Both the position numbers and the translations under genes were made by a program. A stretch of DNA of 33,428 nt from a virus (Duplodnaviria; Caudoviricetes), in IMG/VR virus record IMGVR_UViG_3300020543_000018, positions 1 through 33,428 of that record. The stretch is one strand, 5' to 3'. Shown piece after piece: positions 18,836-33,428 of the stretch; positions within the stretch are counted from its first letter, which is position 1; every line of letters begins with the position of its first letter. The notes beneath the pieces are model-generated. The model saw only the letters and a list, made by a program, of their open reading frames with translations, did not search any database and was not told the DNA's origin.

Positions 18836-19049
18836 GGGTTTTGTCTATTAGTGCTGATGTGATGACCGTTAGGTCATGTATCCTCTGCTTCATTTCCTCA
18901 AAGAGCATTGCTGCTTCCTCTGGAGTTTGGCAGTGGGTTGCTTTTCTCCACTTTTTAATCGTGGTGAAAACTTGCTGTTTTTCCGCTGAAGCGGAGTGAT
19001 GTGCTGACCCCGCAGGGGCCGTTGCGTTGGATAGGAATGGAGATTTCAC
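18828..19049 (-). CDS. Possible small hypothetical protein
   Basis: Fills the gap between helicase-C and the HTH gene, but its start overlaps the helicase by 95 nt. Confidence 0.35.
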   Translation of the reverse strand: MKSPFLSNATAPAGSAHHSASAEKQQVFTTIKKWRKATHCQTPEEAAMLFEEMKQRIHDLTVITSALIDKTHE

Positions 19050-19569
19050 GGTATTCTTCGTCTTCGACCTTCACCACCAGAACCGCAGTTGCATCCTGCT
19101 GAATCGCCCTAGACTCACGAGCCTTGCCAGCCTCGTTAAGCTGAGTAATCGCAAACAGGACGCACTTGAGTTCCATGGCCAGCAAGCGGAGTCCACGAGA
19201 AACCTCGGCTACCTCCCGCTCACGAGTGCCATCCTTGCCAAGATCGAACCGCACGAGCTGGATGTAATCGACAACGATTGCCTCCAACCCGCCGCTCTTT
19301 GCCATAGCCCGTGCTGTAGCGCAGATGCTAGCAAGGTCGTACAGGTCGTCCCGTACAACCAGCCCAGTGCGTGCAAGATTCGAGATAGCCGTGGCGACAC
19401 GCCGGAAGTCTCCCTCGTTCCTCACGCCTTCTGCCAGCGTCCGAAGCGACACATTGGCTTGCTTGGCCACGAGACGGTCAAGGATTTGACTTGCTGGCAT
19501 CTCAAGCGAGATGACCAGAATCTTACCTTTGCCCGTTACCTGGCCTTGCGCTGGTTGTGTTGCGTCCAT
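18955..19569 (-). CDS. DnaB-like replicative helicase, C-terminal part
   Basis: H1a ILVISLEM, H2 IVVDYIQL, H3 EVSRGLRLLAMEL..ITQLN, H4 RESRAIQQDA and QRNGP. No Walker A. Confidence 0.9.
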   Translation of the reverse strand: MDATQPAQGQVTGKGKILVISLEMPASQILDRLVAKQANVSLRTLAEGVRNEGDFRRVATAISNLARTGLVVRDDLYDLASICATARAMAKSGGLEAIVVDYIQLVRFDLGKDGTREREVAEVSRGLRLLAMELKCVLFAITQLNEAGKARESRAIQQDATAVLVVKVEDEEYREISIPIQRNGPCGVSTSLRFSGKTASFHHD

Positions 19570-20540: not shown

Positions 20541-20845
20541 GGGTTCTTTTCAAATGCGCCGCAGCCAACAACTCTGCCGTTGCTATCCCTGTGTAACTTC
20601 GCTGGAGAGATGAGATCGCTGCGCTCTGGCAACGCTTGCCGGACGTATTGCGACACGATGTAAACAACGCCATCTTTCTTGGGCGGACAGTTCTGCACTG
20701 CGCCGGAGTCACAAACCATCAACGGAATCCCGTCGATGTCCCCGACTTTTCGGAGCGTTGTCGCCACACGGGCAACGTGCCCCGATGGAGGATATTTGTT
20801 CCCGCATGCGTCCACCTCATGCGCCATGTAATTGACTACTTTCAT
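20537..20845 (-). CDS. Conserved phage hypothetical protein (PPSG..AR / IVS / RD..G.VVGC family)
   Basis: YPPSGHVARV...YIVSQYV...RSDLISP...RDSNGRVVGC; ATGA coupling to helicase-N. Confidence 0.8.
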   Translation of the reverse strand: MKVVNYMAHEVDACGNKYPPSGHVARVATTLRKVGDIDGIPLMVCDSGAVQNCPPKKDGVVYIVSQYVRQALPERSDLISPAKLHRDSNGRVVGCGAFEKNP

Positions 20846-21579
20846 TGTTTGTTCAGTAAGTTGCTTATGATGTTGAGCGCAAGCATCGTCTTGCCGCTCT
20901 TGGTTTCCCCGCCGATGACCACATAGTCACCGTACCGAATAGGGCACATGTCGTCCAATTTCTTAAAGCCAGTGGAGATACGCATGCTAGAGTCATCCCC
21001 CTCCTGATACCGCTTTGCTGCGTCTACCAGCAGACTCTTCGTGTCCATCGCTTTCGGAGGCACAGTCTCGCGCATGAGTGCGTCCACTTTCATGGAAAGC
21101 CCTGCAATGAGGTCAGAGGTGGGGTGCTCGTTTGATTGAGCGTCCTGCACAGCTTGGTATGCCAAGATCATCAGAGCCCGTCGCTTGCTTGCGCCTCTAA
21201 CCAAGTTAATGAACTCAGGCATTGCCTGCACTACTCCGCACAGGTGGTACAAGTCAGACACGTCCGGCAACTGCACGCTGGAGTCTTTCTCTCGGAGTTT
21301 CTCGAAAACCACACGCAGGTCGCACGAGGCGTTGCGGGTCGTTTGTTCTAGCACTACTTCCACGGTCATCTTTGCCAGCGGGTTGATGAAGTCGGACGGA
21401 CTGAGCCGCGCCTCCATACTCGCATGCAAAAACTCGTTCGGGTGGTTCAGCGCAATCGATGCTAGACCGCGCTCTGCTTCGTCGCAGGATGGGACGGTCA
21501 AGGTGACAGAATCACCAGCTTGTTGCTGTGCTTTGTGGCGCATTCGTGAGGGACGGTTTGGCAGTTGGAGCTTGTGCAT
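20842..21579 (-). CDS. DnaB-like replicative helicase, N-terminal part including Walker A
   Basis: DnaB N-domain (AERGLASI...LSPSDF...SKRRALM), ISTGFKKLD, Walker A GGETKSGKTMLALNI, then a stop. The exact start is uncertain. Confidence 0.88.
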   Translation of the reverse strand: MHKLQLPNRPSRMRHKAQQQAGDSVTLTVPSCDEAERGLASIALNHPNEFLHASMEARLSPSDFINPLAKMTVEVVLEQTTRNASCDLRVVFEKLREKDSSVQLPDVSDLYHLCGVVQAMPEFINLVRGASKRRALMILAYQAVQDAQSNEHPTSDLIAGLSMKVDALMRETVPPKAMDTKSLLVDAAKRYQEGDDSSMRISTGFKKLDDMCPIRYGDYVVIGGETKSGKTMLALNIISNLLNKQ

Positions 21580-23154: not shown

Positions 23155-23304
23155 TCAACAGGATTTTTTTGAATCCCTGTAAGTGTGTGCCGTGTTGGGC
23201 TTTGAACCTTTCTGCGTGCCTAGCTCTTGGTGCAGAACTTTGGCAGAACGCTTGTCGGTCTGGTCGATGGACTTGACGTGCTTGAACGAGATTTCCTTTT
23301 TCAT
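23155..23304 (-). CDS. Small basic hypothetical protein (49 aa)
   Basis: Hand-translated MKKEISFKHVKSIDQTDKRSAK...; ATGA overlap with the 1425-aa gene. Confidence 0.45.
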   Translation of the reverse strand: MKKEISFKHVKSIDQTDKRSAKVLHQELGTQKGSKPNTAHTYRDSKKSC

Positions 23305-26300
23305 TTCTTTGCTTTCTTGATTGCGTCTTCTCTATTCCGAAATACCCCGATGAGTCCAGCAGTTGCTCCGTAGAGGCGGTATTTTCCGTTGAGCTTGAGG
23401 ATGATGCGGTCTTTGCGAATCGGCTCTTGCTCTGCTGTCACAACTTCTTCTGGTCTACCAAACTTGCTGGCTGCACGTTCCTTTATGCTTCTCGCCCACT
23501 CTTCGTATTCTTTCTCTTCAGTGATTCTTTTCGCTTCTTCTTCAGCAGCCTTTGCTTCCATTTCAGCCGCCTTCTTTGCTCTTTCTGCTTTTCTCTGGCG
23601 AACCAAATCTCCAGCACCAGGCCCAAGTGGCTTATCGGCTTGATAGGTCGGCTTCTTGGTTTTCACCATTTCTGCAACCCATTCCGTAAGTGCCCTTTGT
23701 GGATTAGCTCCATATTGCACAGTTAATGCCTCAGCCTCATATGGCTGGCTCTGCTGCGCTCTTGCTTGGGCTTGCTGTTGAACAACTTGCTCTTGCGCTA
23801 TTGCCCCACGCTCCGTTGCGCTGAACATCCGCTCGATAGCCACGCGCATTTCGTCTGGCACAAACTCACGAGCAACTTGGATTGCACGCATGGCTTCCGG
23901 CGTGTCCATGGACAATGCTTTCCGAAGAATAGCGTCCTTTTGCAAGGAGGTCATCTTGAGCGGTTGTTTCTGGTATATGACTCCCGTAGGCTTGCCGCCC
24001 AACGTGTTCTCGAAATCAATCAGAGCCTCAACGTAATCGCGCAGCTTGTTCGTTTCCTGTAAGGCTTGGTACTCCTGCTCTGTTAGCGGTTTGCGAACAT
24101 CTTTAGAGAAGAGTCGAGAAAGTTCCTGTTGCTTAGCAATAGCTTGCTCTTGCAGGATTGCCGCTTCCTCTGCGGTAGCAACTCCATCTGCCTCAAACTT
24201 AGCCCTTAGCGCAGCGACATCTCGGTCTGTGCGGCGTTGAGCAGACTCGGCCATGCCTTTCTCGCGTTTAGCGATTTGCTCTCCCATCTCAAATGGAGTG
24301 CGAGGCAATGGCTTCTGCTTCTTGCGCTTAGGCTGGAACCTTACTTGGCCTTCTTCTTGACGCGCTCCGGCAGCTTCTTGCCCTTGGGTGTCTCCTTGGC
24401 GAACCGCTTCGCGATTGCTGGCTCGTTGGCGTACAGATACTTCCTTTGCGCGTTGCTCTTGAATGGCATCTTGTAGTTTGTTGATGGTTTGCGTGTCTTT
24501 GATTGACCTGCGAGTGGACGCTTCCGCCGCTTGATCGAAGGTCTTAAAAATACCAACACGATTGCCAAGCACATCGAACACGCGATAGCCCGTCGTCTCG
24601 GTCTTTACGATTCTATCTCCAGAGATGTCTTGCGCTATGCTCCCGTTTGGAAGCTGTTCGTATTTGGTGCGGGCTGGCTGGAAGTGCCTCTGAATGCCTT
24701 GGATGCTGCTTACATCCATTGGGACACGAGTGTCGGTGATGTTGATTGAGCCGACAACACGCCGCAGTGGAATAAGCTCCATGCCATTCTGCCTTTCAGC
24801 TCCCATTCGGCCAATCATCGCTGCATCTTCCAGCGACAACTTATTGAGCATCGTAACGCCTTGTTCAGCGAACCGTTTGGTTGGCGTTGGAATCTGGAAT
24901 GATTTGAGCAAAGAGGCGTGTCGTTTATCCCCTAGCGGAACCCCATCAACTTCCACCGCAACTCGGCTATTCTTTGCAGCTTCCGGCGTGAACCTGTTCT
25001 TGGATAGATACTGCAAGTAAGCATCCATGTATCGACGTGCCTGCGCCATGTCAGTAAACCCTGACTGTCCGCTAGCCACAGCCTTGCCTAGTCGGTCGAT
25101 AGCGTTCCCGTAATCAAACGCCAAAAGCTGTACTCCACCGTCCCTGTTCCAGATGATGTCAATGCCTACGAGATCCTTATCGAAAGGAGTGCCCATCCGG
25201 ATGTTACCAGTCTCAGCAACGCCAGACTCGCTCATCATCTTGAACACCTGCGATAGCCGCGCCACCTTGCCCTCTCTGATGGCTTGCTTCATCGTGACGA
25301 GGTTTTGAGCCTCAATCGGATACAGCAGCGGAGCGTTGGCTTTTGCTTTGGTGGTGATAGTGCGCTTCGTCAAGTCCCAGATGACATTATCCGGCAGGTC
25401 GAGAACAGATAGCCCATTCTTGCTGTAGTACTTGGACAACGATTCCTTGGCTCCATTCTGAATCAAAGCATCCTTGATTTGGTCGAACACTTGCGGGAAG
25501 TGTTGCTTGCGAATCTTGTCGTTCATCATCACGCGAAGACGGTCAGCGTAATCCGCTCTGAATATGTCCGGCGTCATCTTCACCGCCACTGGCTCTGGAG
25601 GAAGACCTGGAGCATCTTTCGCGAAGATGCGATCCATGACTGGGTCAAGAATGGGGTTGCCCTTAACCTCTGAGTTGAACAGTCTGCGGAGCTTTGTCTT
25701 TGCGACATTAATGCCTTCTTGCCAGATTGTTGGCACTGCTCCACGGATAAAGCTGCGAGGGTCTTTCCCCTTCACCCAGTCTTCCGCATAGGTCGCAGCA
25801 ATCTCGTGCGTGATGTCCCGCAACTCTCGCACAACTTGTTCCCTTGGAACTGACGGGTCTGTAATCCGGTCAAGCTGCTCGCGTATCTTGTCGGCCTGAG
25901 TCGTGCCGTCTGGATAAGTAATGTTCTCTGCTCTAGAGATATAGTCATCAAGCAGCTTTGCCGTCTCAGCGTTACTTAGCTGCGGGGTCAGCTTGCCTTC
26001 GGAGTCTCGCCTAAAAAGCGTGTTCGTGATTTCGTCAGCAACAACGTCGGTCACCAACGAATGCACCATTTCATGCGGCAGCGTGCTTGCATCTGCATTG
26101 TTTCCGTTGATGTAAATTGTTCCGTCTTTCTTGTCGAAGACAGCATTCCATCCATCCACAACCTTGCCGTCAATCAAGTGCGCCTTCCCGTCAACCACCT
26201 TTACTTGACGATTGCGCTCAAGTGCCAAGTCGGTCATGGCAACGAATGTCGCTAGGCTTTTGCCGTCGCGATCCATGTTGCTCAACTTGTCAACAAACTC

Positions 26301-27578
26301 AGCCCTCAACGCCAGTTCTTCTGGAGCTTCGCCTAGCAACTCAAATGCGCGGAGTTGTCTGCCAGCTTCGTTCAACGCTCTTTCTTTCGATACCTTGCCA
26401 GTAGAGACATCAATCATGCGTGCTGTTGCGCCCATGATTCCGCCAGCAGCCAAACCGCCGCCGATAGCCTCTCCGATTCGCTCTGCGTCCGTTGTTTGCG
26501 TTGCCTCAAGAATGCCGTTGATTGCCCCTGCGCTAAGTCCAGCTTTTGCTGCCTGCAAAGCAATCCCTGCTGCTTCGCGTGGAATAATTCTCTGGGCAAT
26601 CGTAAGCGGAACTTTTGCTGCGCCAGAAATCGTTGGGTCTAGGAGTGCTCGCTCTAAAGCACTCAGTTGTCTTTCACCGCCAACCATTGCCCTGCCAACA
26701 GCTTCAGTTGCCTCGCCAACAGCTTTTACTGCCGTGCCTGCCGCTCCAACCGTAGCCGCTTCTGCCGCCCCTGGAACAAGCCCTCCAGCAATATCAGCTA
26801 CTGTTGCTGCTGTTGCCGCCCTCTCTGCAAGCTGCGTTGCCGCTTCCGGCGTTACTCCAGCGACACCTCTTGCCACCGCTGCAACTGTGTTCTTTGGAAC
26901 CGCTGCAATTGCCTCTGCTGCTCTGCCTGTGTTTCGCAGAATTGTGCCAGCGGCTTGAGTGGCCTTAGCCCCAGCAGTACCTGCTTTTCCAGCAATCCCA
27001 ACTCCAATGAGATTCATTGGGTCTGCAATCGGGGAGAGACCCTGCACTTGTTCTGGACTTACTTGGAACCCAGTTAGCGTTTCCTGTCCTGTCGCAGCTT
27101 TTGCAAGAGCCTTGGCCCTATTCAGATTATCTCTCCACGCAAAGTAGGCGAGCGTTTCATCTGAGCCATTCACCGCATTGAACACCATGCCTCCAGGGTC
27201 TGTTCCGCCTGAGAGGATTTGTCCGTATGACAATAGGTTTTGCGCTACCGCTTCTGCTGCTGAGGCTGGAACTGCTATTGGATCGGCGAGTGCCGCTGCT
27301 GGCAAACCAATCATGCTCTTGCCCATTTCGAGTAATCCTCGTCCCACTCCTTTAAGCGCATCGCTTGCATCGAAGCCTCGTTCTTGCGAGAAGCTCTTGT
27401 ACTTACGGAAGTCCTCTAGAGAAGGTTCGTAATCAAGCAGGTTGTGCTTGATGTTATCCTCAACGTCCTGCCCTGTGCGTGGATACTTGAAGTCAACGTA
27501 GGCTGCAATCTCCTCATCTGACATGTCGTCAGGGAGGTTTAAGGTGATGTTCTTACCTTTGATAGTTACTGTAGCCAT
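23301..27578 (-). CDS. Large internal virion / DNA ejection protein with zincin-like HExxH domain
   Basis: 1425 aa. N-terminal LPDDMSDEEI, A/G-rich hydrophobic region, IYIN...TLPHEMVH and coiled C-terminal part. Largest and last gene of the ejection cluster. Confidence 0.7.
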   Translation of the reverse strand: MATVTIKGKNITLNLPDDMSDEEIAAYVDFKYPRTGQDVEDNIKHNLLDYEPSLEDFRKYKSFSQERGFDASDALKGVGRGLLEMGKSMIGLPAAALADPIAVPASAAEAVAQNLLSYGQILSGGTDPGGMVFNAVNGSDETLAYFAWRDNLNRAKALAKAATGQETLTGFQVSPEQVQGLSPIADPMNLIGVGIAGKAGTAGAKATQAAGTILRNTGRAAEAIAAVPKNTVAAVARGVAGVTPEAATQLAERAATAATVADIAGGLVPGAAEAATVGAAGTAVKAVGEATEAVGRAMVGGERQLSALERALLDPTISGAAKVPLTIAQRIIPREAAGIALQAAKAGLSAGAINGILEATQTTDAERIGEAIGGGLAAGGIMGATARMIDVSTGKVSKERALNEAGRQLRAFELLGEAPEELALRAEFVDKLSNMDRDGKSLATFVAMTDLALERNRQVKVVDGKAHLIDGKVVDGWNAVFDKKDGTIYINGNNADASTLPHEMVHSLVTDVVADEITNTLFRRDSEGKLTPQLSNAETAKLLDDYISRAENITYPDGTTQADKIREQLDRITDPSVPREQVVRELRDITHEIAATYAEDWVKGKDPRSFIRGAVPTIWQEGINVAKTKLRRLFNSEVKGNPILDPVMDRIFAKDAPGLPPEPVAVKMTPDIFRADYADRLRVMMNDKIRKQHFPQVFDQIKDALIQNGAKESLSKYYSKNGLSVLDLPDNVIWDLTKRTITTKAKANAPLLYPIEAQNLVTMKQAIREGKVARLSQVFKMMSESGVAETGNIRMGTPFDKDLVGIDIIWNRDGGVQLLAFDYGNAIDRLGKAVASGQSGFTDMAQARRYMDAYLQYLSKNRFTPEAAKNSRVAVEVDGVPLGDKRHASLLKSFQIPTPTKRFAEQGVTMLNKLSLEDAAMIGRMGAERQNGMELIPLRRVVGSINITDTRVPMDVSSIQGIQRHFQPARTKYEQLPNGSIAQDISGDRIVKTETTGYRVFDVLGNRVGIFKTFDQAAEASTRRSIKDTQTINKLQDAIQEQRAKEVSVRQRASNREAVRQGDTQGQEAAGARQEEGQVRFQPKRKKQKPLPRTPFEMGEQIAKREKGMAESAQRRTDRDVAALRAKFEADGVATAEEAAILQEQAIAKQQELSRLFSKDVRKPLTEQEYQALQETNKLRDYVEALIDFENTLGGKPTGVIYQKQPLKMTSLQKDAILRKALSMDTPEAMRAIQVAREFVPDEMRVAIERMFSATERGAIAQEQVVQQQAQARAQQSQPYEAEALTVQYGANPQRALTEWVAEMVKTKKPTYQADKPLGPGAGDLVRQRKAERAKKAAEMEAKAAEEEAKRITEEKEYEEWARSIKERAASKFGRPEEVVTAEQEPIRKDRIILKLNGKYRLYGATAGLIGVFRNREDAIKKAKK
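24341..24469 (-). CDS. Nested out-of-frame small basic protein (MPFKS family, 42 aa)
   Basis: MPFKSNAQRKYLYANEPAIAKRFAKETPKGKKLPERVKKKAK resembles a recurrent stand-alone phage peptide. A-rich leader CAACAAACTACAAG precedes the ATG. Confidence 0.6.
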   Translation of the reverse strand: MPFKSNAQRKYLYANEPAIAKRFAKETPKGKKLPERVKKKAK

Positions 27579-27583
27579 GTCTG

Positions 27584-29029
27584 CTATCGTTCAATTTGAA
27601 TCCTTGATCCTCCGCTTGTCGTGCTGTTAGTGGCGTTGGGTTTTGGAGCCGCTTTCATCTCTTCAAGAAGCTGCTCTCTTGTTCTGGGTTGCCCAAACAT
27701 TTCTCCCAAGTACTCCGGCAATTGAGGAGCAGATGGGAGGAACTTGTTTTCCTTCCTTAGCTGCTGCATGACCTCCATGTCCGGCTTTAGTCGTTGAGCA
27801 ACAATTGAGCGAAGCTCTCTCATCTGCTGTGCAAACCCTTCTGGATTTGCTGTGAAGAACTTTGCGATTGAGTCCTCTCCCTGCAAGATTGCGTTCACGT
27901 TGAACTTTTCAAGAGCCTCGGCATACCGCTTAAATTCCGCATTCTGAATAGCATCTGAAGTTCCAACAATTGCACTCTGTGCTGCTTTGAGGCCATTCTT
28001 GAGTGCCGCAATCTTAGCCGCCCTTGCTTTGGGGTCTTTTGTTGCGGCTGCTTCATCCGCAAGGATTGCCATCTGGTTAATCTGCTCGATTCCTCTCAAG
28101 GTGTCCGTTGCTTGAGAATAAGACTTATTGAACAATTCCTTTGATGAGGCTCCAATGTCTTGTACTTCTTTCCAAGGCGTAGTGGGCGAGTCTCTTGTTT
28201 GCAGCTTTGAGCCAACAACCCTGACTTCTTCTTTCCAGCTTGATTCAGCTTGTGCAAGCTGCGCGTCATAGATGTCTTTTATCCGCATCCGGTCAACTCG
28301 CGGGTTGGCTAGGTTTGCCGCCCTCCACTGCTCAAGCGAACTTTTGAATGCTTTGAATCGTTTTTCTTGAGGCGTTATTTCTGGAAGTTGATATACACCT
28401 GCTCCCTCCTCTGCTTCTGCTCTCGTTGGAATCTTCCCTTGTCGCGCTGCGGCAGGTTGCGGCCCTGTTGGAGCTTGCTGTTCTGGCAAAGCCACGTCAA
28501 TGAACGTGGGGCTTACTGGAGCTGTGCTCTTCTCTAGCTCCGCACTGCTTGCCTTGAGCTTTTCTTCGGCTGTTCCAAGCTGGATGCTTAACTTTGCTCT
28601 ATCCCTGTTGTTTAACGGAATCGGAGGCGGTGGGATAAACTCTCCAAACCCACCCATTGGGGTCACTTGCGTCACTCCAGATTTGATCTTCTCCCTGATT
28701 CTATTAACCTCTGCAAGGGATTGCGCCACTGCCTTTTCTGCTGAACTTACTTTGCTTGCTTGATTCTCTACATCTTTGATGTATTGCATCGTCGCTGTTC
28801 CAAGCGTTGTTGGACTCAAAGCCTTCTGCTTTGCAAGCTCGTATGCCTTTCTGTGCTCTGGATTTTCTGGGCTGTATTCGGCAGGAATACGCAAGGCAAT
28901 AGGAGCGTCATCGAAGTTCCAGCCCTCTGGTCTGATTGGCTCCATTGAGCCTGGCGGTGCTGTTGCTACTGCCGCTGGTGCTCCCGTGCTGTAGTCAAAA
29001 ACATTAGCATCTACATCAAATTCATCCAT
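27584..29029 (-). CDS. Probable internal virion / ejection protein
   Basis: Helical/coiled ~481 aa in the ejection cluster. Start reassigned to 29029 (MDEFDVDA) to avoid overlap with the upstream gene. Confidence 0.6.
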   Translation of the reverse strand: MDEFDVDANVFDYSTGAPAAVATAPPGSMEPIRPEGWNFDDAPIALRIPAEYSPENPEHRKAYELAKQKALSPTTLGTATMQYIKDVENQASKVSSAEKAVAQSLAEVNRIREKIKSGVTQVTPMGGFGEFIPPPPIPLNNRDRAKLSIQLGTAEEKLKASSAELEKSTAPVSPTFIDVALPEQQAPTGPQPAAARQGKIPTRAEAEEGAGVYQLPEITPQEKRFKAFKSSLEQWRAANLANPRVDRMRIKDIYDAQLAQAESSWKEEVRVVGSKLQTRDSPTTPWKEVQDIGASSKELFNKSYSQATDTLRGIEQINQMAILADEAAATKDPKARAAKIAALKNGLKAAQSAIVGTSDAIQNAEFKRYAEALEKFNVNAILQGEDSIAKFFTANPEGFAQQMRELRSIVAQRLKPDMEVMQQLRKENKFLPSAPQLPEYLGEMFGQPRTREQLLEEMKAAPKPNATNSTTSGGSRIQIER

Positions 29030-29057
29030 ATGTATGGCTTTTGATTTGCCTGCTTCT

Positions 29058-29510
29058 TTATCTAGAAAAACTTGGTGGCGTTGTGGGGTTTTCACTCGCT
29101 TGCCCTGCACTCCTCATCCCTGCAATCCGCTCACGAGAAGCTATTTCATTTTGCTGCATCGTGTACTTCATGCCGTAGTCTAGCAGCGTGTTGAACAGGT
29201 TCGTGCCCATCTGAGCTTTCTGTTTGTTGGAGAACTCGTCGCTAGACAAGAAGTCTTGAAATGCTTGTTTCTGCTGCGGGTCTTGAATCAAGTCTGCTGT
29301 TTTTCCTAGAGCCGACACGGTGCTCTTGGCGTCTTGCCCAGCAAAATAGTTCCCAGCTCCCGTTGAGATTCCGGAAGCCATCCCCTTGCCGAAGTCAGCT
29401 AGACCTTGGTAGTTAAACTGTCCGATCCTTGCTCCAGCCTCAGAGAGTCCTGCTCCCATCTGTGCCATTGCTGCTGGTGCTTGTCCGCTAAAGGGGTTTC
29501 TTGGAGTCAT
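29058..29510 (-). CDS. Probable small internal virion / ejection protein
   Basis: G/A/Q-rich 150 aa (GLADFGKGMASGISTGAGNY); ATGA-coupled to tfuA. Confidence 0.6.
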   Translation of the reverse strand: MTPRNPFSGQAPAAMAQMGAGLSEAGARIGQFNYQGLADFGKGMASGISTGAGNYFAGQDAKSTVSALGKTADLIQDPQQKQAFQDFLSSDEFSNKQKAQMGTNLFNTLLDYGMKYTMQQNEIASRERIAGMRSAGQASENPTTPPSFSR

Positions 29511-30502
29511 AGGTTGTTGAATAGTTTGTAGTCTTGCTCAAGTCTTGCTGCTAGAATGCACCCGTCTGTGGAATCAAACCAGTCAAGCACACATTGCTTG
29601 ACAGCAAGTTTGATTGCAAACATATTCCACCGCTCTTGGCTCACGTTGTTTGCCTCCATCCACTCAGAGGCAGCTTTATCGCTAGTGATGCCTAGCTTTT
29701 GCCACATTGCCTTGGATTGCTCGCTAACTTCGTAAGCGTTTGGATTCACTCCCATCGTTGCTGCCATCTCAACTAGCATATGCAGTGCTATAGCCTCTTC
29801 TTTGTGCGTTGATAACTCCCACGGCCTACCCTTGCTGTTTGGCATGTCGTGCTCTAGGAGCATCCCCATGTTCGAGGTGTAGATATGCTTTGCGGAAGGA
29901 ATGACCGCAACAGGCTTTCTTGCGTGAGCGATAGCCTCCTCGGCATCAAGCCGCTTCTGGTCGATGTAGTTGTCCTTGAGCAACTGCCCTGTGTCGCCCA
30001 AGTCCTTGAGAAGCCGCTGCCAGCTTCTCTCCATGTAAAAGATTCCACGGCACTGCTCAATGACCTGCTGTGCGCTCTTGATTTTGCCGCTCTCCTCAAG
30101 GTGCTTGGCTGTTGCCATGATGTTCACAAGCGGAACTGAAAGCTGCTTGCACCCGTCCTCTGCGGCAGAGTGCGCCAATGCAACGTCAGCGTCATCTGTG
30201 CATGTTCCATTCTTGTACCACTCGGCAATTACTCCAACTGGCTCTGCACCGTATCGCTCGCATTCAACAGCCCTGAGTGCCCCTAGCGAACCCGCGCCAA
30301 TGACCCTGCATCCTTGATGGATTGCGTGCAGGATTTCCTTGTGCCAAGGGGCTAGGTTCTGCGTGAAGAAGCCGTCGATAAGGACGATGGTTTTCTCTCC
30401 TTCGTGAACAGCTCTAGCGATGTCTCCCTGCTGCGCTGGCGCAAACACGTCCAGTCCGTCCAGATTCATTCCATGCCCAGTTGGGCCAATAAACACTCTC
30501 AT
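29507..30502 (-). CDS. tfuA: TfuA-like protein (YcaO partner in thioamidation)
   Basis: VFIGPT, PAQQGDI, IDGFF, WHKEILHA, GAGSLGALRAVEC, DDADVALAH, SVPLVNI and DQKRLDA motifs. The true start at 30502 overlaps the ycaO stop (ATGA); 331 aa. Confidence 0.92.
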   Translation of the reverse strand: MRVFIGPTGHGMNLDGLDVFAPAQQGDIARAVHEGEKTIVLIDGFFTQNLAPWHKEILHAIHQGCRVIGAGSLGALRAVECERYGAEPVGVIAEWYKNGTCTDDADVALAHSAAEDGCKQLSVPLVNIMATAKHLEESGKIKSAQQVIEQCRGIFYMERSWQRLLKDLGDTGQLLKDNYIDQKRLDAEEAIAHARKPVAVIPSAKHIYTSNMGMLLEHDMPNSKGRPWELSTHKEEAIALHMLVEMAATMGVNPNAYEVSEQSKAMWQKLGITSDKAASEWMEANNVSQERWNMFAIKLAVKQCVLDWFDSTDGCILAARLEQDYKLFNNL

Positions 30503-31653
30503 GCAATCCCCCTTTCTCCAATGCGTCCACCTTTGTGGTAATAGCCTTCGGCTGTTGGTATTGTAACACGCACAACGCTGCACGGATACGGGTGCTTGAA
30601 CACCTTTACAAGCGGCTCTGGCATCTTTGCTTTGTGCAACTTGTGCAAGAGGACAGCAATGTCTGCTGTGAACGAATCTGCGCTGCAATCCTCGTGCTTG
30701 TTGGCATCTATCGTGTCGAACTCGTAAAACGTCTTGATTGCAGAAGCCGCATCAATCGTTCGTGATTTGGTGAACTTTTCGTGCGAGATGTCGTCTCTGC
30801 TGCCGGAGAGATATACAACCCTGCTTTGCACGGCTTCGCAAAGTGCTCTGGCTTGAGCCACATGAGGGCTGAGGTGCGACGAGTAGCCTTTGTGAACCCC
30901 TGTTCCTCCCTCAATATCAAAGGTGTATCCGATATACGTTGGCACATCGATGTCCTGAGTGACATCCAAGAGAACTGGCATGATGCCGTTTGTCCTGAGC
31001 TTTTCGACCAGCGACCCAACAATCTCATCCTTGATGGTGTCCAAGTCCACTCGGTGTGCATGAATGTTTTTTGTGAATGACGTTGAAACTTGGTCGCGTT
31101 CGATAACTTCGTAGATGCCGCCTGCGATTGCCTCGTTCAGCGTGTTGCCGCTGGAGAGTCCGTTCGTTGTTGAGCCGAAGCTAGTCTTGAAGATTGGGAA
31201 CAAAGGCTGAGATTGCTCCAAGCGCACGGACACTGCGGGAACTATCTTTCGCTGCTTTGAGCGAAGGCCAAACATGTCTGTCCACTCAATCGGTATATCT
31301 GGGTGATAGAAGCCTCCCTTGACCATCTGCACTCGCGTATCGGTGTCCTTGAGGTTTCGGCCCTTATCGAAGAACGAGTTGATTGGAAAGCTCTCAGCAA
31401 CGTGCCTCTCAAATGACTCCATCATTGCGGAGCATAGCGCAGCCTCGGTTGTGAATCCTTTTCCCGAATCAACGCAAACAGATTTGCTGTCTGGTCGTAT
31501 GCTTTGAGCCACAGGAATCCCTGTGCGATCAAGTCCCGTTATCTCTGCAAGACGAGTTATGCCAGCAGCTTTTAGCCACGGCTTCATCCTCTCTAGTGTC
31601 TGTCTGTGGGTGCAAGCTCTCTGAGCACCATCTAGCTTTGTTTTAACATCCAT
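30499..31653 (-). CDS. ycaO: YcaO-family ATP-dependent amide-activating enzyme (TfuA-associated, thioamide synthetase type)
   Basis: GITRLAEITGLDRTGIPV, SGKG, SAMMESFER, TNGLSSGN, YEVIERD and EAVQSR..SGSRDD motifs. Lacks the C-terminal PxP of azoline-forming YcaOs. Confidence 0.93.
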   Translation of the reverse strand: MDVKTKLDGAQRACTHRQTLERMKPWLKAAGITRLAEITGLDRTGIPVAQSIRPDSKSVCVDSGKGFTTEAALCSAMMESFERHVAESFPINSFFDKGRNLKDTDTRVQMVKGGFYHPDIPIEWTDMFGLRSKQRKIVPAVSVRLEQSQPLFPIFKTSFGSTTNGLSSGNTLNEAIAGGIYEVIERDQVSTSFTKNIHAHRVDLDTIKDEIVGSLVEKLRTNGIMPVLLDVTQDIDVPTYIGYTFDIEGGTGVHKGYSSHLSPHVAQARALCEAVQSRVVYLSGSRDDISHEKFTKSRTIDAASAIKTFYEFDTIDANKHEDCSADSFTADIAVLLHKLHKAKMPEPLVKVFKHPYPCSVVRVTIPTAEGYYHKGGRIGERGIA

Positions 31654-32708
31654 GCGGAAGAAAGCCCTGTTAGGGCTATGCGTCCAATGAACCGCATGAC
31701 GCTAGAGTTGGCAATCGTTTCAGCAAGCTGCTCGCCATTTTTGCAGTACCACCGGATGAACTTGTCGGATGCGTTGCGAATCATGCTGTTTCTGAACTTG
31801 ACCCACTTGTCGCTCAAGCTGCCAAAGCATGCTCTGGCAATCCAGCAGTAGGCAACTGCGGCAACAACCGCTCCGCCAATTGACCCAATCATGCTCATCG
31901 TCCCTGCTCTTTGCCCCGCTGCTGCTTGAGCGTTCGCTGCCGCTAGTTGTGTTTGCGCGTTGTATGCCCCGTAAATCGACCCCATGCCAACTTGGCTTTC
32001 TGGGTTGAACATGGAAGGGCCGGACATCTGCTGTGACATCAACGCTTGACCCAGCGAGTTGCCTGCGAAGTTTGCTGCGTACATTGGTTGCTGGTAGAAC
32101 GATGCAATCGCTGGAGCCGCTGCCTGTTGCAGTGACCCTGCAATACCAGCAGACATCTGCATTCTGCCAGCCTGCAATTGGTCTTCCTCCAGCTTGCGTT
32201 GACGCTGGAACTGGTAGCGGTTGAGGATCTCGCTTAAAGCAGATTGGTCGCCAAGGGCTGTTCCTCGTGCGGCATACGCTGCACGGGTTGATTGCTGGAT
32301 TGCGCGTTCTTCCTGTGGGTTTAGCCCGTACTCTGGCCTGCGACCTTGCAACTCCTCTGCATAGGTGCGAAGTCCTTTGGTGAGCGGAGTGATTCCAGCA
32401 GCATCTTGAAAGGCTTGAACGTAGCCTGGAGCACGCTCTCGCAGAGCCTGTGTCTCTGCCAGTTGTTGGGAACGCTTGTAGCTTGATTCAAGCTGAGATA
32501 ACTGCGGCTGAAGCTCTCTAAATAGACCTAGCTGGTCTTTTGCTTCCTGTGATTGAATTTGCGACTGGAGCTTTTGGTAAAGCGGTTGGTATTCCTTCTC
32601 GCGAGCGTATAGCTGTGGCGCAAGTTCAATCTGAGCCATGAGGACATCCCTCATGGATTCCTTGTATTGCGGTGGAGGCGGAGCTTGGATTTTGGGTGAA
32701 GATCCCAT
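31632..32708 (-). CDS. DNA pilot / internal virion protein with C-terminal CWIAR (CFI-box-CTERM-like) domain
   Basis: MGSSPKIQAPPPP N-terminus, Q/A-rich helices, hydrophobic IGSIGGAVVAAVAY, then CWIARACFG..W..FR..FIRWY..GE.LA. Confidence 0.65.
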   Translation of the reverse strand: MGSSPKIQAPPPPQYKESMRDVLMAQIELAPQLYAREKEYQPLYQKLQSQIQSQEAKDQLGLFRELQPQLSQLESSYKRSQQLAETQALRERAPGYVQAFQDAAGITPLTKGLRTYAEELQGRRPEYGLNPQEERAIQQSTRAAYAARGTALGDQSALSEILNRYQFQRQRKLEEDQLQAGRMQMSAGIAGSLQQAAAPAIASFYQQPMYAANFAGNSLGQALMSQQMSGPSMFNPESQVGMGSIYGAYNAQTQLAAANAQAAAGQRAGTMSMIGSIGGAVVAAVAYCWIARACFGSLSDKWVKFRNSMIRNASDKFIRWYCKNGEQLAETIANSSVMRFIGRIALTGLSSAWMLKQS

Positions 32709-33084
32709 AAAATAGGCGCAGTAGCTTCTTGGTTGTTATTTCATGGATGATTCCATCCCGTATAGCGTAAATCAAGTCAGGTTTCTTATCTTGGATAGCC
32801 CTCTCGGTCATATCCTCTAAAGCCTTCCTGTTCTTCGCCCACGCCGTTAATATTGTCCAGTCGTTTGTTAGCTCTTCCCATTGCCAATCCGGCAACTTGC
32901 AGCCAGGGTGAGCTAACATCACAGCAGTAACTTCGCCATCTTCTATCGAGTAGAAAAGCCCTCCGTGCAGTCCGTAATATGTCAGTATGTTCTTTATCTC
33001 CGCTTCGCTAGTTCCATCCCAGAGCTTGGGATATCTCTTCGCAGCAGCTAGTTCTGCTTCAAGGATTTTGTCCCATACGGTCAT
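32626..33084 (-). CDS. Hypothetical protein, possibly GNAT-like (T7 gp13-like slot)
   Basis: Lies between tail and ejection genes; EDGEVTAVMLA beta strand. Overlaps the next gene by 83 nt. Confidence 0.45.
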   Translation of the reverse strand: MTVWDKILEAELAAAKRYPKLWDGTSEAEIKNILTYYGLHGGLFYSIEDGEVTAVMLAHPGCKLPDWQWEELTNDWTILTAWAKNRKALEDMTERAIQDKKPDLIYAIRDGIIHEITTKKLLRLFYGIFTQNPSSASTAIQGIHEGCPHGSD

Positions 33085-33428
33085 CTTATGACGCTTATAA
33101 TGCCATCGTATATGCCATTTGTTGTTATTGCAGGATGACTAGGAAATACTATTTGAATTCCTTTTGATGTGATCCCGTATCCGGTAAGTGCTGAGTCTGG
33201 GTTGTTTATTGACTGGTTGCTTATTGGGGCTTCTATTTTTCTAGCAATTATTGCGGAATACAATGTTGGTGTAGTCGTGCTTCCAATAAGAGCATTCCCA
33301 AAAACACTGGTTGTGAGTAACGTGGGGTTTGCAGTCTGTGTTTGCGGCACAGATGTCATGTCTTGCGTTTCTGAATCTCTCCAGTAATTTATGTAGTACT
33401 TTTCTGAAGTTAAATCCACATAAACACT
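33081..33428 (-). CDS. Tail/structural protein, C-terminal part (5' end outside the window)
   Basis: T/S/I-rich open frame running to the window edge; ATGA coupling to the next gene. Confidence 0.55.
   Translation of the reverse strand, partial: SVYVDLTSEKYYINYWRDSETQDMTSVPQTQTANPTLLTTSVFGNALIGSTTTPTLYSAIIARKIEAPISNQSINNPDSALTGYGITSKGIQIVFPSHPAITTNGIYDGIISVIR

Follow-up and report, generated by a model that had tools for sequence, protein, structure and literature searches.

A Phage YcaO-TfuA Pair in an Exchangeable Cassette and the Proposed Thioamidation of a Pilot-Protein Tail

Introduction

Backbone thioamides, which are installed by YcaO enzymes acting in some systems together with TfuA, were described in the thioamitide peptides, where they shield the peptide from proteolysis (PMC8153245) and where the core of thioviridamide, SVMAAAASIALHC, carries five of them contiguously (PMC10125368). 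For full-size proteins the literature found describes thioamides in McrA and uL16 only, and none in a virus. TfuA was reported to hydrolyse a ThiS-type carrier (PMC13063428; PMC8153245). Here a YcaO-TfuA pair encoded by a phage is described, which lies at positions 29507-31653 of a 33,428-nucleotide (nt) stretch of DNA (hereafter the window; positions 1-33,428 of IMG/VR record IMGVR_UViG_3300020543_000018; Duplodnaviria, Caudoviricetes). No report of a viral YcaO-TfuA system was found in a literature search that left most subscription journals outside; the main text of PMC8120280 contains neither 'phage' nor 'virus', and the supplementary precursor tables of that paper and of PMC6511847, which might list viral entries, lay outside this search.

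The pair is located next to a gene for a pilot protein, the hydrophobic tail of which precedes a C-terminal domain termed here CWxAR. We consider it rather probable that ycaO-tfuA converts backbone amides in the Ala/Val-rich tail of this pilot into thioamides. The features on which the argument depends are as follows (aa, amino acids):

30499-31653, minus strand: ycaO, a standalone thioamide-type YcaO of 384 aa, assigned by family match, motifs and structural model
29903-30502, minus strand: TfuA domain of tfuA (aa 1-200), with invariant K55 and S72 and a Z score of 25.9 to 6XP8
29507-29902, minus strand: C-terminal helical extension of tfuA (aa 201-331), with a hint of a SurA-like fold that is a lead only
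31632-32708, minus strand: pilot gene, 358 aa, probably P22 gp7-like by language-model lead and position, the proposed substrate
31848-31892, minus strand: hydrophobic tail of the pilot (aa 273-287), the proposed thioamidation site, from tail comparison across relatives
31632-31847, minus strand: C-terminal CWxAR domain of the pilot (aa 288-358), weakly CFI-box-CTERM-like
31956-32009, minus strand: conserved pilot segment FNPES...YGAYNA, between which and the tail end the left exchange boundary of the cassette falls in most relative pairs
29058-29510, minus strand: 150-aa gene downstream of tfuA, the start of which bounds the cassette on the right; its N-terminus appears alike (by eye) under all alleles

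Tail Composition and the Content of the Slot

Pilot homologues came from searches with three alignments, the tail being left out of two, and from metagenome loci. After 31 of 308 rows had been dropped (23 without downstream DNA and 8 truncated), 277 rows with 144 distinct tails were left; locus L286, which matches the window in both length and tail, was not counted as independent, and profile comparisons between pilot families, being circular because alignment A1 holds members of both families, were not used. Each homologue has an uncharged hydrophobic tail, after which the protein either ends or continues into a CWxAR or an S74 autocleavage domain, and the slot behind it contains YcaO-TfuA for 56 distinct tails, a PP-loop ATPase for 62 and no enzyme for 26. 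With a threshold that was chosen after seeing the data, at least four Ala among the last eight tail residues were found in 55/56 tails with YcaO, 2/62 with the PP-loop ATPase and 0/26 without an enzyme. This association holds separately in three pilot families, and when a composition score is trained on one of them, it separates the tails of the others with an area under the curve of 0.95-1.00. The tails scored as lacking YcaO truly lack it, since searches of whole records detected YcaO in 4/4 controls and in none of the 96 'minus' records, of which 24 have a completeness of 90% or more. Nor is the CW domain the cause of the association: 50 of the 56 YcaO tails carry the CW extension, and the six that end in a stop are all Ala-rich, whereas none of the 15 CW-bearing enzyme-free tails is.

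The tail in the window is uncharged and hydrophobic, lies within the most hydrophobic 19-mer of the pilot and ends with GGAVVAAVAY, directly before Cys288 of the CWxAR domain; its likeness to the thioviridamide core is one of composition. In family B (L012:7455-10001; L021:7068-10001) Ala/Gln/Asn-rich repeats make the pilot length differ between about 390 and 980 aa, with a constant tail.

An Exchangeable Cassette

The tail travels with the enzymes, because the exchange boundary falls inside the pilot gene. Ten locus pairs were compared at the DNA level. The eight with adjacent alleles share an identity of 74-93%, which is lost 7-45 codons ahead of the tail end and, in 6/8, regained at the start of the next gene, so that the tail end, the extension and the enzymes move as one unit. 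For most pairs of relatives the left boundary falls between the FNPES...YGAYNA segment and the tail end; the best partner of the window itself has diverged too far for the break to be located. By these comparisons ycaO-tfuA is one allele of an exchangeable slot, to which the last codons of the pilot gene also belong, and the exchange of the pair as one block with the Ala-rich tail end makes the tail its likely target. Low-depth contigs from sequencing runs X3 and X4 diverge at window positions 31720-31989, in the tail and CW region, which suggests other alleles in the same samples.

In a tree of family-A pilot bodies the YcaO status is scattered, with 12 changes, 11 of them forced, and it is no more clustered than in shuffles. 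About 10 of 11 independent pairs go in the same direction (Ala-rich with YcaO) and none in the opposite one; families B and C add four and two pairs, which all point the same way but do not suffice for a test (the tree of family C excludes five rows with extended tails). However, independent pairs alone do not show adaptation, because the tail lies inside the exchanged block.

Several observations weigh against the proposed modification of the tail. Since the tail is physically linked to ycaO, a few old cassettes that were transferred again and again, instead of repeated adaptation, may account for the pairs, and linkage alone could explain much of the tail-enzyme association. The Ala threshold is leakier out of sample, as 5/26 tails of a later PP-loop set fall on the YcaO side, the YcaO tail of L003 has only three Ala, and tails are Gly/Ala-rich under all alleles. 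Both thioamides known from proteins occupy a single site in a folded protein (PMC5589413; PMC13063428), the gp7 assignment of the pilot is a language-model lead that hidden Markov model and PDB searches left without a match, and the tail thioamide itself is deduced from genes and sequences.

Three observations nevertheless argue for more than linkage. In the complete phage G001 ycaO-tfuA lies more than 15 kb away from the pilot gene, on the other strand, and the pilot, which bears the enzyme-free type of CW domain, has the Ala-rich tail GAIVGAAGAAAAAAI; only this one genome serves as an unlinked control, because the records of L005, L020 and L158, where the pair is displaced as well, do not contain the pilot. 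Moreover, the Ala signature persists beside YcaOs that are only 27-31% identical (L154-L157), with different tail sequences, and is seen across CW, CWVAREVYG and stop contexts.

The same evidence bears on the idea that a different protein, of the phage or of the host, is thioamidated by the pair, the Ala-rich tail merely hitch-hiking and the conserved pilot segment being the left crossover site. A boundary inside the pilot gene makes the linkage complete; four loci carry the pair elsewhere, three of them on the strand opposite to the structural genes; and the cellular substrates McrA and uL16 are not encoded beside their YcaO (PMC5589413; PMC13063428). The position of displaced copies among non-structural genes, or between portal and scaffold in L158, would fit other substrates or timing and thus also counts against the tail. 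On the other hand, G001 retains an Ala-rich tail without linkage, the signature survives with YcaOs down to 27% identity and in all three contexts, only two other Ala-rich stretches, both short, occur in non-enzyme genes among 13 window proteins scanned, and the N-terminus of the downstream gene is invariant with the allele (by eye). Another substrate is, on balance, unlikely. The original prediction, by which the phage thioamidates its own ejection or virion proteins or a host protein, finds support in its first branch, narrowed to the Ala/Val-rich tail of the probable ejection protein, the host branch having become less likely. Displaced ycaO-tfuA was found in the searches at L004:10001-12123, L005, L020 and L158:5353-7571 only; there the pair runs in inverted orientation amid non-structural genes, faces a small gene head to head, or stands between portal and scaffold.

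The YcaO and TfuA Enzymes

Intact ycaO and tfuA with catalytic motifs had been predicted, and both proved to be so: YcaO (30499-31653) matches PF02624 with 186 bits and TfuA (29507-30502, minus strand, 331 aa from ATG) matches PF07812 with 113 bits. The AlphaFold2 model of YcaO (mean predicted local distance difference test, pLDDT, 88) superposes on Methanocaldococcus YcaO 6PEU with a template-modelling (TM) score of 0.82-0.84, and the motifs S63GKG, S75xxxE79xxE82R, N164GLSSG, E182xxE185RD and R269xxxE273, which we take to be ATP-binding (ATP/Mg), align to MjYcaO and are invariant across 25 sequences. The TfuA model (pLDDT 90) resembles Methanosarcina TfuA 6XP8, and the invariant S72 and K55 presumably form a Ser/Lys catalytic pair. 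The helical extension of about 130 aa is absent in the 217-aa archaeal TfuA; its weak likeness to the SurA chaperone (8QPV, E 0.72; 3RGC, Z 6.9, root-mean-square deviation 4.0 over 80 residues) is a lead only. With a YcaO domain of intact motifs and an adjacent intact TfuA, the pair classes on its sequence as a predicted TfuA-associated thioamide-forming YcaO.

Membership in the equivalogs of McrA thioglycine formation was rejected, as YcaO reaches 212 bits against a cut-off of 365 with its best NCBIfam match, TIGR03266, TfuA 134 against 235 with NF033432, and the pair lies outside the archaeal clade. The uL16-modifying YcaO family (NF040716) failed as well, with 39 bits against 700.

Sulfur Supply and the Proposed Course of Modification

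If the pilot tail is the substrate, YcaO would use ATP to activate the backbone carbonyl, as in established YcaO-TfuA chemistry, and TfuA would release sulfide from a thiocarboxylated ThiS-type carrier, here that of the host. Several thioamides are probable, as in thioamitide cores, and they would be formed in the cytoplasm, before packaging, while the CWxAR domain is probably removed or acts as a follower domain. The tail would form outer-membrane pore helices, as the P22 gp7 C-terminus does (bioRxiv 10.64898/2026.09.03.749273), and the thioamides might adjust how it inserts into the membrane, or shield the protein after ejection against proteases and defences that block entry.

Support for the sulfur chemistry comes from the ThiS carrier inside related cassettes, since a ThiS ending in AFAGG lies between ycaO and tfuA in 9/48 tail groups, though not in the window. 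The use of host sulfur donors, as originally proposed, thus fits the window genome but not all relatives, nine tail groups having a ThiS of their own. No match to ThiS, ThiF, protease or transporter families was found among the 38 open reading frames (ORFs) scanned in the window, in agreement with the original prediction, and the GG-ending ORFs, for which the window and the near-identical loci L001 and L030 were scanned, were limited to two short frames on the opposite strand of the window. ThiS/MoaD-like carriers are placed at L126:11149-11415 and L107:5408-5674, and L145 adds a 72-aa gene before the carrier.

One may ask if the pair acts on the tail by a different YcaO chemistry, either amidine formation or an ATP-dependent cleavage that removes the CW domain. 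The CW extension on 50/56 YcaO tails may need removal, and the title of PDB 7U58 names a YcaO with ATP-dependent peptidase activity. Yet TfuA follows ycaO wherever the DNA is in view, some cassettes hold ThiS, six YcaO tails have no extension and 15 CW tails no enzyme, and the closest structure is the thioamide-forming MjYcaO; this chemistry is accordingly given little probability.

The tail might also be a core like those of peptides that are made by the ribosome and modified after translation (RiPPs), thioamidated and excised at both ends as a small thioamitide-like peptide that acts on the host or on competitors. The tail with the following Cys does resemble thioamitide cores, and an S74 autocleavage domain stands at the same downstream position in relatives. 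However, no protease, transporter or cyclase gene match was found in the window, homologous tails exist without any enzyme and are there the natural C-terminus, and the C-terminus of P22 gp7 is structural (bioRxiv 10.64898/2026.09.03.749273), which makes a released peptide quite improbable.

The Pilot Protein and Its CWxAR Domain

The pilot is probably a P22 gp7-like ejection protein, as pointed to by a language model (Atlas 0.94; 19/30 hits in PF25688 clusters, where the family label stands on 32-46% of the cluster members). Neither the pilot nor the three downstream genes gave a significant match in Pfam, PHROG or PDB sequence searches. The placing of the pair in a virion ejection module is thus supported in part, for the upstream gene by a language-model lead, and found no such support from the three genes downstream.

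The CWxAR domain shows a distant likeness only to NF041770 (CFI-box-CTERM; 17 bits against a cut-off of 40, E 0.004), had no PDB sequence match and met in Atlas only unnamed viral clusters under 0.9; it is possibly an unrecognised self-processing domain related to CFI-box-CTERM. Its first residue is an invariant Cys, placed at the very point at which the pilots of other alleles end or pass into the S74 domain (window 31632-31847; L188, L221).

Distribution, Selection and Assembly

A profile scan placed YcaO at 79 viral loci, 75 of which have an upstream pilot homologue, directly upstream of ycaO in most; tfuA is visible at 65, and the other 14 end at most 114 bases from ycaO. The recurrence of the pilot-ycaO-tfuA order, which had been suggested as a check, is thus established. 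The ratio of nonsynonymous to synonymous rates (dN/dS) is 0.05-0.07 for ycaO and 0.03-0.08 for tfuA in three pairs with the window, and 0.035-0.29 (15 pairs) and 0.03-0.57 (14 pairs), respectively, in all pairs; both genes are under purifying selection. With 79 loci and values far below 1, a neutral one-off insertion is ruled out. In a quick tree of 73 YcaOs, built against bacterial and archaeal enzymes as had been proposed, most viral sequences fall into one supported group, which is placed with bacterial relatives and apart from the archaeal enzymes, and those of L154-L157 are a long-branched set outside it. Among 50,697 records of cultured phages there was no member, only one weak match, to an E. 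coli-type YcaO, and neither the pilot nor the PP-loop enzyme had a match. The 80 best hits of a GTDB scan, at 31-35% identity, are nearly all from methanogen records and include no prophage member. The YcaO-TfuA pair is real, selected and virus-restricted.

The window represents part of a podovirus-like genome; its long genes all lie on the minus strand and include those for an SU10-type capsid, terminase, ThyX and a split DnaB. The predicted coupling of the pair, to both neighbours and internally, was found exactly at all three junctions: a 22-nt overlap of the pilot gene and ycaO at 31632-31653, and ATGA at 30499-30502 and at 29507-29510. From this coupling late expression is inferred. Each junction is bridged by independent contigs, the first by run X4 (31024-33400), that of ycaO and tfuA by X3 and X4 (30039-30960), and that of tfuA and the downstream gene by X7 (29113-29824) and X17 (27600-30849), all four runs stemming from separate studies, so that a chimeric assembly can be dismissed. 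Sixteen runs hold at least half of the sampled words, 14 labelled freshwater or lake and two fungus metagenome; no RNA runs are among those listed as carrying window words, X17 being probably DNA. Inert cargo or an assembly artefact, to which the absence of the pair for 88/144 tails (and hence its dispensability at lineage level) would be favourable, is therefore largely refuted by the low dN/dS, the deep viral clade and the bridged junctions, and is given next to no credence.

Two further features form the context of the cassette:

23301-29110, minus strand: 508-aa and 1425-aa genes, probably further internal virion proteins, outside the cassette and with no family match
32626-33084, minus strand: 152-aa gene upstream of the pilot gene, conserved in position

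The DnaB helicase is split just after the P-loop into two ORFs (20842-21579 and 18955-19569), with three genes between the halves, including an exonuclease VIII-like one, in the same order in relatives. L002 is probably a chimeric contig, since at positions 1-1400 the 3' part of its pilot gene directly adjoins genes that resemble the head-tail connectors of a different type of phage.

The PP-loop Allele of the Slot

The slot of 62 of the 88 tails without YcaO is taken by a PP-loop ATPase (PF01507-like, with SGGKDS and four invariant Cys), which is followed in 56/62 by a CxxCxxCC gene (PF03692). All 62 stand behind a free hydrophobic pilot C-terminus and none behind a CW or S74 domain, and a reverse search from the PP-loop gene found the motif at 81/84 loci, in 81/81 behind a free hydrophobic tail. 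The gene occurs in 0/20 YcaO records and in 1/12 records with an enzyme-free slot, there behind a second pilot-like gene. Examples are L068:6793-7635, with 61 other tail groups, and L247:7395-7682. The 50-kb record L444 (G066) holds two pilot-like genes with different alleles (S74; stop with PP-loop), through duplication or as a chimeric record.

Source databases annotate this allele as 3'-phosphoadenosine 5'-phosphosulfate (PAPS) reductase, a label that may have mistaken a virion-protein-modifying enzyme for a sulfur-metabolism gene. PP-loop enzymes with Cys clusters, i.e., TtuA, DndC and LarE, insert sulfur; these families are only weak matches for the slot gene, and the allele may have a DNA- or sulfate-related role. 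A broader view can be offered tentatively, at less than even confidence: the locus may be an exchangeable maturation slot for the membrane-piercing tip of the ejection protein, where unrelated chemistries are swapped, each with a matched tail. YcaO-TfuA(-ThiS) would polythioamidate the Ala-rich tail, the PP-loop enzyme (four invariant Cys) with the CxxCxxCC protein would activate and cap a free hydrophobic C-terminus, perhaps with sulfur, and S74 or CWxAR would be self-processing, which would amount to a virion protein bearing a RiPP-like, diversifying post-translational code, with control over entry, host range or the evasion of entry-blocking defences.

Should the tail be thioamidated, the pilot would be the first viral protein known with a thioamide, a new class of virion modification, and a compact, directly testable enzyme-substrate pair, and the natural allele swaps would provide a handle on what thioamides do for a membrane-inserting helix. 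The PP-loop allele is commoner still among viral matches (402 against 82).

Comparison with Known Systems

Membership of the pair in the McrA system and in a thioamitide cluster failed in both cases, even though the pair would work like either. With the methanogen McrA YcaO-TfuA (TIGR03266/NF033432; 6PEU, 6XP8; PMC5589413) it has in common the folds (TM 0.82-0.84; Z 25.9), the overlapping of ycaO and tfuA and, in some members, sulfur-carrier genes close by. In contrast to that system it is viral, lies outside the archaeal clade and below both cut-offs, has a TfuA longer by 130 aa and no McrA, and its proposed target is a repetitive Ala-rich tail instead of one glycine (thioglycine in McrA). 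The E. coli YcaO, which thioamidates a full-size protein, uL16 (PMC13063428), as is proposed for the window YcaO, is about 580 aa long and works without TfuA, whereas the window enzyme has 384 aa and a TfuA.

P22 gp7 (PF25688) shares with the pilot the position in a podovirus module, a Gln/Ala-rich helical body and a hydrophobic C-terminus, with no alignment-level support; no report of an enzyme cassette modifying gp7 was found in the literature. The thioamitide RiPPs (thioviridamide, thioholgamide and thiostreptamide S4; PMC8153245; PMC10125368) likewise combine YcaO and TfuA with an Ala/Val-rich stretch followed by Cys and encoded beside the enzymes. Among the 38 window ORFs, however, no short leader-core precursor (ORFs under 60 aa lying outside the precursor scan) and no cyclase, decarboxylase or other tailoring, protease or transporter family was matched, and the 'core' of the window is the end of a 287-aa protein body, homologues of which exist without any enzymes.

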